Assembly: GCF_003334335.1 (NCBI RefSeq)
Contig: NZ_QOWQ01000035.1
Strand: one strand, 5' to 3'
DNA from: Escherichia coli
GTDB lineage: Bacteria > Pseudomonadota > Gammaproteobacteria > Enterobacterales > Enterobacteriaceae
Length of the DNA: 47,404 bases
In this document: positions 43,918 to 44,056 of the stretch, piece by piece
Layout: each line of letters opens with the position of its first letter
How positions within the stretch are numbered: position 1 is the first letter of the stretch
Made by a program: the position numbers and the translations under genes
The notes under the pieces: model-generated
The model's input: only the letters and a program-made list of their open reading frames with translations
Told to the model about the DNA's origin: nothing
Database searches by the model: none

Positions 43918-43950
43918 CCGCGTGATGGCTGTCACGCGGTATTTCGTTTC
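43918..43950 (+). terminator. hairpin after mdtP (ccgcgtga tggc tgtcacgcgg) with T-rich tail
   Basis: 8-bp perfect stem followed by tatttcgtttcg. Confidence 0.5.
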
Positions 43951-43990
43951 GTCACGTCAAAACTGACGACAGCCTGTTTTTCGTCAGAGT
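43945..43990 (+). promoter_or_regulatory. putative upstream activating sequence of fdhF (repeated tcgtca / tgacga motifs)
   Basis: Inverted repeat cgtca-aaac-tgacg and a further tttcgtca about 60-100 bp upstream of a sigma54-type promoter; assignment to FhlA is from prior knowledge of fdhF regulation. Confidence 0.4.
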
Positions 43991-44039
43991 TTTGAATAAA
44001 TAGTGCCCGTAATATCAGGGAATGACCCCACATAAAATG

Positions 44040-44056
44040 TGGCATAAAAGATGCAT
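44040..44056 (+). promoter_or_regulatory. sigma54 (-24/-12) promoter of fdhF: tGGcat-N6-tGCat
   Basis: TGGCATAAAAGATGCAT matches the GG-N10-GC sigma54 consensus about 50 bp upstream of fdhF ATG. Confidence 0.7.

Follow-up and report, generated by a model that had tools for sequence, protein, structure and literature searches.

The sigma-54 promoter and predicted FhlA enhancer of fdhF in an Escherichia coli chromosomal segment

The fdhF control region and its closest relatives

In the NtrC/glnAp2 paradigm of sigma-54-dependent transcription, the activator binds at sites some 100 bp upstream of the GG-N10-GC promoter, which is opened in an ATP-dependent manner by looping. The fdhF region has the same architecture, but it differs from this paradigm in its activator, FhlA, which carries a GAF-type formate-sensing N-terminus, responds to formate and not to phosphorylation, and recognizes a different binding site. 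FhlA is a formate-binding, sigma-54-dependent activator with binding sites upstream of both fdhF and hyc (PMC11291172), and it has been described as the activator of fdhF with formate as the ligand (PMC11291172, PMC4987338). In Proteus mirabilis, an fdhF reporter was induced by formate and its activity was lower when fhlA or rpoN was mutated (PMC7658346). The region governs formate dehydrogenase H, that is, the formate-oxidizing half of the formate hydrogenlyase, which makes H2 in fermentation, and it is in use in formate biosensors and in the engineering of hydrogen production. The control of fdhF has been a subject of research since the late 1980s, thus its confirmation brings no new biology: the promoter and the enhancer are already known, well characterized, and strongly conserved. 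As by-products, the present analysis defines the enhancer more sharply on the basis of conservation (a palindrome plus flanking half-sites with a fixed spacing) and points to a conserved block in the spacer. Sigma-54 occupancy, FhlA binding, and the dependence on rpoN, fhlA, and formate are taken here from the literature, and the elements themselves, their uniqueness, their conservation, and the sites shared with other targets were observed directly.

The locus was analyzed in a 47,404-nt stretch of the E. coli chromosome, which is referred to as the window. The mdtP ORF ends at 43909 and the ATG of fdhF is at 44107, so the mdtP–fdhF intergenic region comprises the 197 bp between 43910 and 44106 according to both the ORF table and the annotation. 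The 801 bases around the control region had a match of 98.5–100% identity in 5420 of the 5426 complete E. coli genomes, where they are annotated as the last part of mdtP and then fdhF, and 5294 records had the 181-bp control region itself with an identity of 99% or more (100% in many E. coli genomes). Compared with K-12 fdhFp and its upstream activating sequence in the formate regulon, this is the same locus with the same sequence and nothing substantial differs: the 17-mer GTGGCATAAAAGATGCA and the 41-nt distance between the predicted start and the gene are identical, and the flanking genes mdtP and yjcO match. The fdhF CDS (formate dehydrogenase H, 715 codons; 44107–46254, plus strand) was assembled from two ORFs lying in one frame (44107–44526 and 44575–46254) in agreement with the RefSeq annotation. 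The in-frame TGA selenocysteine codon is located at 44524–44526 and is accompanied by a SECIS hairpin at 44519–44573 (Rfam SECIS_2, 87.1 bits); the fdhF of the window is the selenoprotein formate dehydrogenase H. Upstream of the control region, a terminator scan detected the intrinsic terminator of mdtP at 43916–43951 (plus strand), consisting of a hairpin with an 11-bp stem (43916–43941) and a T-rich tail.

Annotation was adopted from the near-identical strain NZ_CP066366.1, whose coordinates were used only near fdhF, where the ORF table agrees with them. Around adiA this genome is shifted by about 300 bp relative to the window, and the register is restored at mdtO–fdhF, which implies compensating indels somewhere between the two positions. 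Its phnE gene is annotated as frameshifted.

The promoter element upstream of fdhF

The sigma-54 −24/−12 element, TGGCATAAAAGATGCAT, is located at 44040–44056 on the plus strand, and its assignment is based on the sequence, the RpoN matrix, the ChIP-seq motif OS41, and conservation. It is composed of TGGCAT (44040–44045), AAAAGA, and TGCAT (44052–44056), and 50 nt separate it from the ATG of fdhF, which is how the sequence-only reading had described it (TGGCAT-N6-TGCAT about 50 bp before the ATG). The GG at 44041–44042 and the GC at 44053–44054 are exactly 10 bases apart, forming the canonical GG-N10-GC arrangement. The motif alone is no proof of a promoter: the loose pattern TGGCA-N7-TGCA had one match in the window versus 0.96 expected, and at least one match appeared in 58 of 100 shuffles; the bare match is insignificant by itself. 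The RpoN matrix, built from 186 sites as reproduced in PMC7658346, gave 13.8 bits for the fdhF site, ranking it second among the approximately 94,800 positions of the window, where no other strong match was placed shortly before a gene and in the sense direction. No sigma-70-like promoter was found in the 43800–44200 region.

The sequence GTGGCATAAAAGATGCA is the motif under the sigma-54 ChIP-seq peak OS41 upstream of fdhF, which has an occupancy score of 41, a predicted start 41 nt before fdhF, and the mark “C”, denoting a promoter with experimentally confirmed status in EcoCyc (PMC4591121). The fdhF/mdtP spacer was also recovered in a genomic SELEX with the RpoN holoenzyme (PMC8743547). In Salmonella, fdhF showed 29-fold sigma-54-dependent expression and a ChIP-chip site, TGGCATAAAACATGCATA (PMC3844500); the same 16-mer is present in one of the loci compared here (L111). 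The identity with the OS41 motif, the SELEX result, and the RpoN dependence of the Salmonella and Proteus orthologues support the earlier proposal that fdhF is driven by sigma-54. Applying the rule of PMC4591121, the transcription start is predicted at 44066 (plus strand), 19 nt downstream of the motif center at 44047. The leader from this predicted start would be 41 nt long, and a Shine–Dalgarno sequence, GGAG, is situated at 44095–44098.

The top RpoN-matrix match of the window, TGGCAGACGTGTTGCT (14.9 bits), lies on the minus strand at 42352–42367, antisense within mdtO. It was considered as a second promoter and rejected as a probable chance match, being antisense and intragenic, and mdtO is missing from the text of PMC4591121.

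The upstream repeats and the predicted enhancer

The sequence-only reading had also pointed to inverted and direct TCGTCA/TGACGA repeats upstream of the promoter. These are present 54–91 bp upstream of TGGCAT: TCGTCA occurs on the plus strand at 43949–43954 and 43981–43986, TGACGA (TCGTCA on the minus strand) at 43964–43969, and an overlapping CGTCA at 43955–43959. TCGTCA is common throughout the window (47 copies versus 22.9 expected), but the clustering is not: three hexamers within 40 bp were found only at the fdhF site of the window and in none of 300 first-order Markov simulations, and four CGTCA/TGACG pentamers within 40 bp were likewise unique to this site and occurred in 1 of the 300 simulations. 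While the repeats themselves proved real, the conserved unit is not TCGTCA as such. Based on conservation, the working unit appears to be the 14-bp palindrome CGTCA-N4-TGACG together with flanking TTTCGTCA half-sites. The core palindrome, CGTCAAAACTGACG, which belongs to the class CGWCA-N4-TGWCG and is conserved across genera, is located at 43955–43968 with its center at about −104.5 relative to the predicted start, begins 85 nt before TGGCA, and includes the TGACGA at 43964–43969 as its right arm. The upstream half-site, TTTCGTCA at 43947–43954 (plus strand, center about −115), contains the first TCGTCA and belongs to a column block, tTCGaCA, conserved in 45 species; the promoter-proximal half-site, the same sequence at 43979–43986 (plus strand, center about −83), contains the third TCGTCA and belongs to the conserved block CTGttTTTCGTCAG.

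Together, the half-sites cover 43947–43986, or −119 to −80 relative to the predicted start. Deletion and footprinting work of the Böck laboratory reportedly mapped an upstream activating sequence responsive to formate to roughly 100 bp or more before the start, and this position is consistent with the segment defined here. The 8-mer TTTCGWCR was not enriched window-wide (9 matches versus 8.75 expected), and for this sequence only the local pairing at the enhancer matters. The exact palindrome class CGWCA-N4-TGWCG had two matches in the 47,404 nt (about 0.008 per 200 nt). The other exact palindrome, CGACAACAATGTCG, is found at 5270–5283 within the adiA coding sequence (ORF 3249–5519); since the degeneracy of the pattern gives an estimate of about 0.18 matches per window by chance, it is probably a chance occurrence.

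To follow the two elements across bacteria, one genome per species was scanned for the fdhF coding motif CPYCASGCK, which yielded 120 loci, 117 of them analyzable. A locus was regarded as sigma-54-positive if the 200 nt upstream of it contained an RpoN-matrix site of 11.5 bits or more, and as negative below 9 bits. Sigma-54-positive were 79 of the 117 fdhF-type loci, representing about 33 enterobacterial genera, including Escherichia, Salmonella, Citrobacter, Klebsiella, Enterobacter, Kluyvera, Cedecea, Buttiauxella, Hafnia, Edwardsiella, Proteus, Providencia, and Morganella. The 35 negative loci came from Pasteurellaceae, Oxalobacter, Budvicia, Gilliamella, Desulfovibrio, and others, and also took in second fdhF paralogues of Klebsiella and Pluralibacter. 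In the 170 nt upstream of TGGCA, an exact CGWCA-N4-TGWCG was present in 74 of the 79 positive loci versus none of the 35 negatives, counts that overstate the number of independent events because the compared species are phylogenetically related. In the 74 loci the palindrome lay 76–121 nt upstream, and the background rate was 0.014 per 170 nt. Both elements are thus conserved and co-occur in about 33 genera, even where a different gene stands upstream.

In 45 Enterobacteriaceae species the palindrome began exactly 85 nt before TGGCA, as in the window, and four blocks were shared. The first is tTCGaCACGTCAaat.TGACGA; the second, CTGttTTTCGTCAG, has a fixed spacing and a conservation of over 90%; the third, cCGTAataTC.g..aATacCCaca, lies in the spacer; and the fourth, TGGCATA.AAgaTGCATa, is the promoter. 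Outside these blocks the spacer showed no conservation in the 45 species, neither in the terminator region on the upstream side nor in the leader. In more distant genera only the palindrome and an extra half-site were retained, and the spacing fell into classes of 76–77, 85–88, 106–108, 111, and 116–121 nt. Counting each class once, a 10.5-bp repeat of the spacings gave a Rayleigh p of about 0.003; the resemblance to helical-turn steps is suggestive only, as the spacing classes are not independent.

Two further observations concern individual loci. Pluralibacter and Klebsiella oxytoca (L029 and L074) possess a second fdhF-like paralogue with the N-terminus MxxVTTVCPYCASGCKMQLTVE, which has neither the sigma-54 element nor the palindrome, so the FhlA/sigma-54 control would be specific to one paralogue. 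The spacer between the enhancer and the promoter of E. coli “clone D i2” (NC_017651.1) contains a tandem duplication of 10 bp, TTTTGAATAA, at the place corresponding to about 43990–43999 of the window. As 10 bp correspond to one helical turn, the enhancer should keep the same face of the helix in this strain.

Considering these results and the published data, we concluded that the 43947–44056 segment is almost certainly the regulatory region already known for E. coli fdhF, consisting of a sigma-54 promoter and an upstream FhlA enhancer that would act as follows. Sigma-54 RNA polymerase would occupy 44040–44056 as a closed complex that is unable to open alone, and FhlA oligomers would bind to the palindrome at 43955–43968 and the half-sites at 43947–43954 and 43979–43986, approximately 80–120 bp upstream of the start. 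Formate, bound at FhlA's N-terminal domain, would activate the AAA+ ATPase, and looping out of the approximately 60-bp spacer would allow FhlA to meet the polymerase, leading to the open complex and to the transcription of fdhF from about 44066. The exact bases contacted by FhlA we infer from conservation; the contacts of each FhlA subunit, the looping geometry, and the phasing requirement are likewise presumptive.

The spacer block, other FhlA targets, and alternative readings

The conserved spacer block, CCGTAATATCAGGGAATGACCCCACA, occupies 26 bp at 44007–44032 (plus strand, −59 to −34) and keeps a fixed spacing in the 45 Enterobacteriaceae species. Such conservation between the enhancer and the promoter would be accounted for if the block were a site for a second protein and the repeats served, additionally or instead, a repressor or an architectural protein, for example in nitrate control. 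We regard this as improbable: a scan of 43910–44106 for the IHF sequence WATCAANNNNTTR (with at most one mismatch) and for the NarL heptamer gave no match, and the repeats strictly co-occur with the sigma-54 element, as an enhancer would. A second factor may act at the block, which would be compatible with the FhlA enhancer acting on the sigma-54 promoter.

The repeats were further compared with the K-12 spacers hycA–hypA, bcp–hyfA, and ascG–hydN, the first of which had been suggested earlier for comparison as carrying the FhlA sites of the hyc and hyp operons. Like fdhF, hycA, hypA, hydN, and hyfA have a −24/−12 element and clusters of YGWCR half-sites 70–110 nt upstream. Exact palindromes of the CGWCA-N4-TGWCG class were found upstream of hyfA (CGACACGGGTGTCG) and hydN (CGTCACTAGTGTCG). 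The hycA–hypA spacer contained neither an exact palindrome nor an exact TCGTCA, yet six YGWCR half-sites are present there in 46 bp (TCGTCG, TGTCG, CGACG, TGTCA, and CGACA twice); the fdhF enhancer is the only place in the window with as many as five such half-sites in 46 bp. The half-sites of hycA–hypA (TCGTCG, TGTCG, TGTCA, TCGACA) are partly direct repeats, unlike the fdhF palindrome, and that enhancer serves two divergent promoters, whereas the fdhF enhancer serves one. Thus, the fdhF repeats and the hyc/hyp sites have the degenerate core YGWCR in common and not the exact TCGTCA, and the element shared by the FhlA targets would be a degenerate half-site, preferably arranged as a 5-N4-5 inverted repeat. 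The sites shared with hyfA and hydN, and the co-occurrence of the palindrome with the sigma-54 element among the compared loci, support the proposal that the repeats form an FhlA enhancer, as far as sequence comparison can indicate.

The published descriptors of FhlA binding fit the fdhF enhancer moderately and have low information content. None of the four FhlA-regulated spacers matched the consensus CATTTCGTACGAAATG (Leonhartsberger et al. 2000, cited after PMC4987338) at more than 9 of its 16 positions, which is no better than the background; the TTTCGT core of the consensus is nevertheless contained in both TTTCGTCA half-sites of fdhF. With the 14-column FhlA matrix from PMC7658346, the palindrome scored 8.2 bits, and 78 positions of the window scored equal or higher; the matrix was rejected as a discriminating test, as its top matches in the window all lay away from the enhancer. 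The form of this matrix, TGWC-N6-GWCA, has the same geometry as the CGTCA-N4-TGACG of fdhF. Compared with these descriptors, CGWCA-N4-TGWCG, having its two exact matches in the 47 kb, is far more specific. We put forward two points jointly, and only tentatively, considering the pair rather doubtful: that the spacer block is the site of an additional protein or a required part of the loop architecture, and that CGWCA-N4-TGWCG is a sharper description of the operator of FhlA than the consensus in the literature. The two points fit the data and, if true, leave the known mechanism unchanged.

Another sigma-54 activator, mainly the FhlA paralogue HyfR, might use the enhancer in place of FhlA or have the site in common with it. 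The same class of palindrome stands upstream of hyfA, which is reportedly responsive to both FhlA and HyfR, and sequence analysis is blind to which protein binds. This reading is nevertheless very improbable: the literature consistently ties fdhF to FhlA, and in Proteus, which keeps the palindrome, mutation of fhlA reduces the activity of the fdhF promoter (PMC7658346). As for the elements being chance matches or by-products of the mdtP terminator, with fdhF transcribed from a sigma-70 promoter or by read-through from mdtP, the promoter pattern is indeed expected about once per window, TCGTCA is common, and the terminator hairpin abuts the enhancer on its upstream side, but this explanation is effectively refuted by the lack of a sigma-70-like site in the region scanned, by the position of the repeats outside the hairpin (43916–43941), by the cross-genus co-occurrence despite differing upstream genes, and by the sigma-54 occupancy seen in ChIP-seq.

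Apart from the FhlA-controlled promoter, RNA families were recognized elsewhere in the window. Intergenic arrays of Rfam matches to naRNA4 (nucleoid-associated RNA) are located at 17392–17668, 20144–20224, and 47042–47225, one of the three just downstream of yjcO, next to fdhF. A full-length Rfam match to the enterobacterial sRNA family STnc630 (181.8 bits) lies on the minus strand at 11561–11726.
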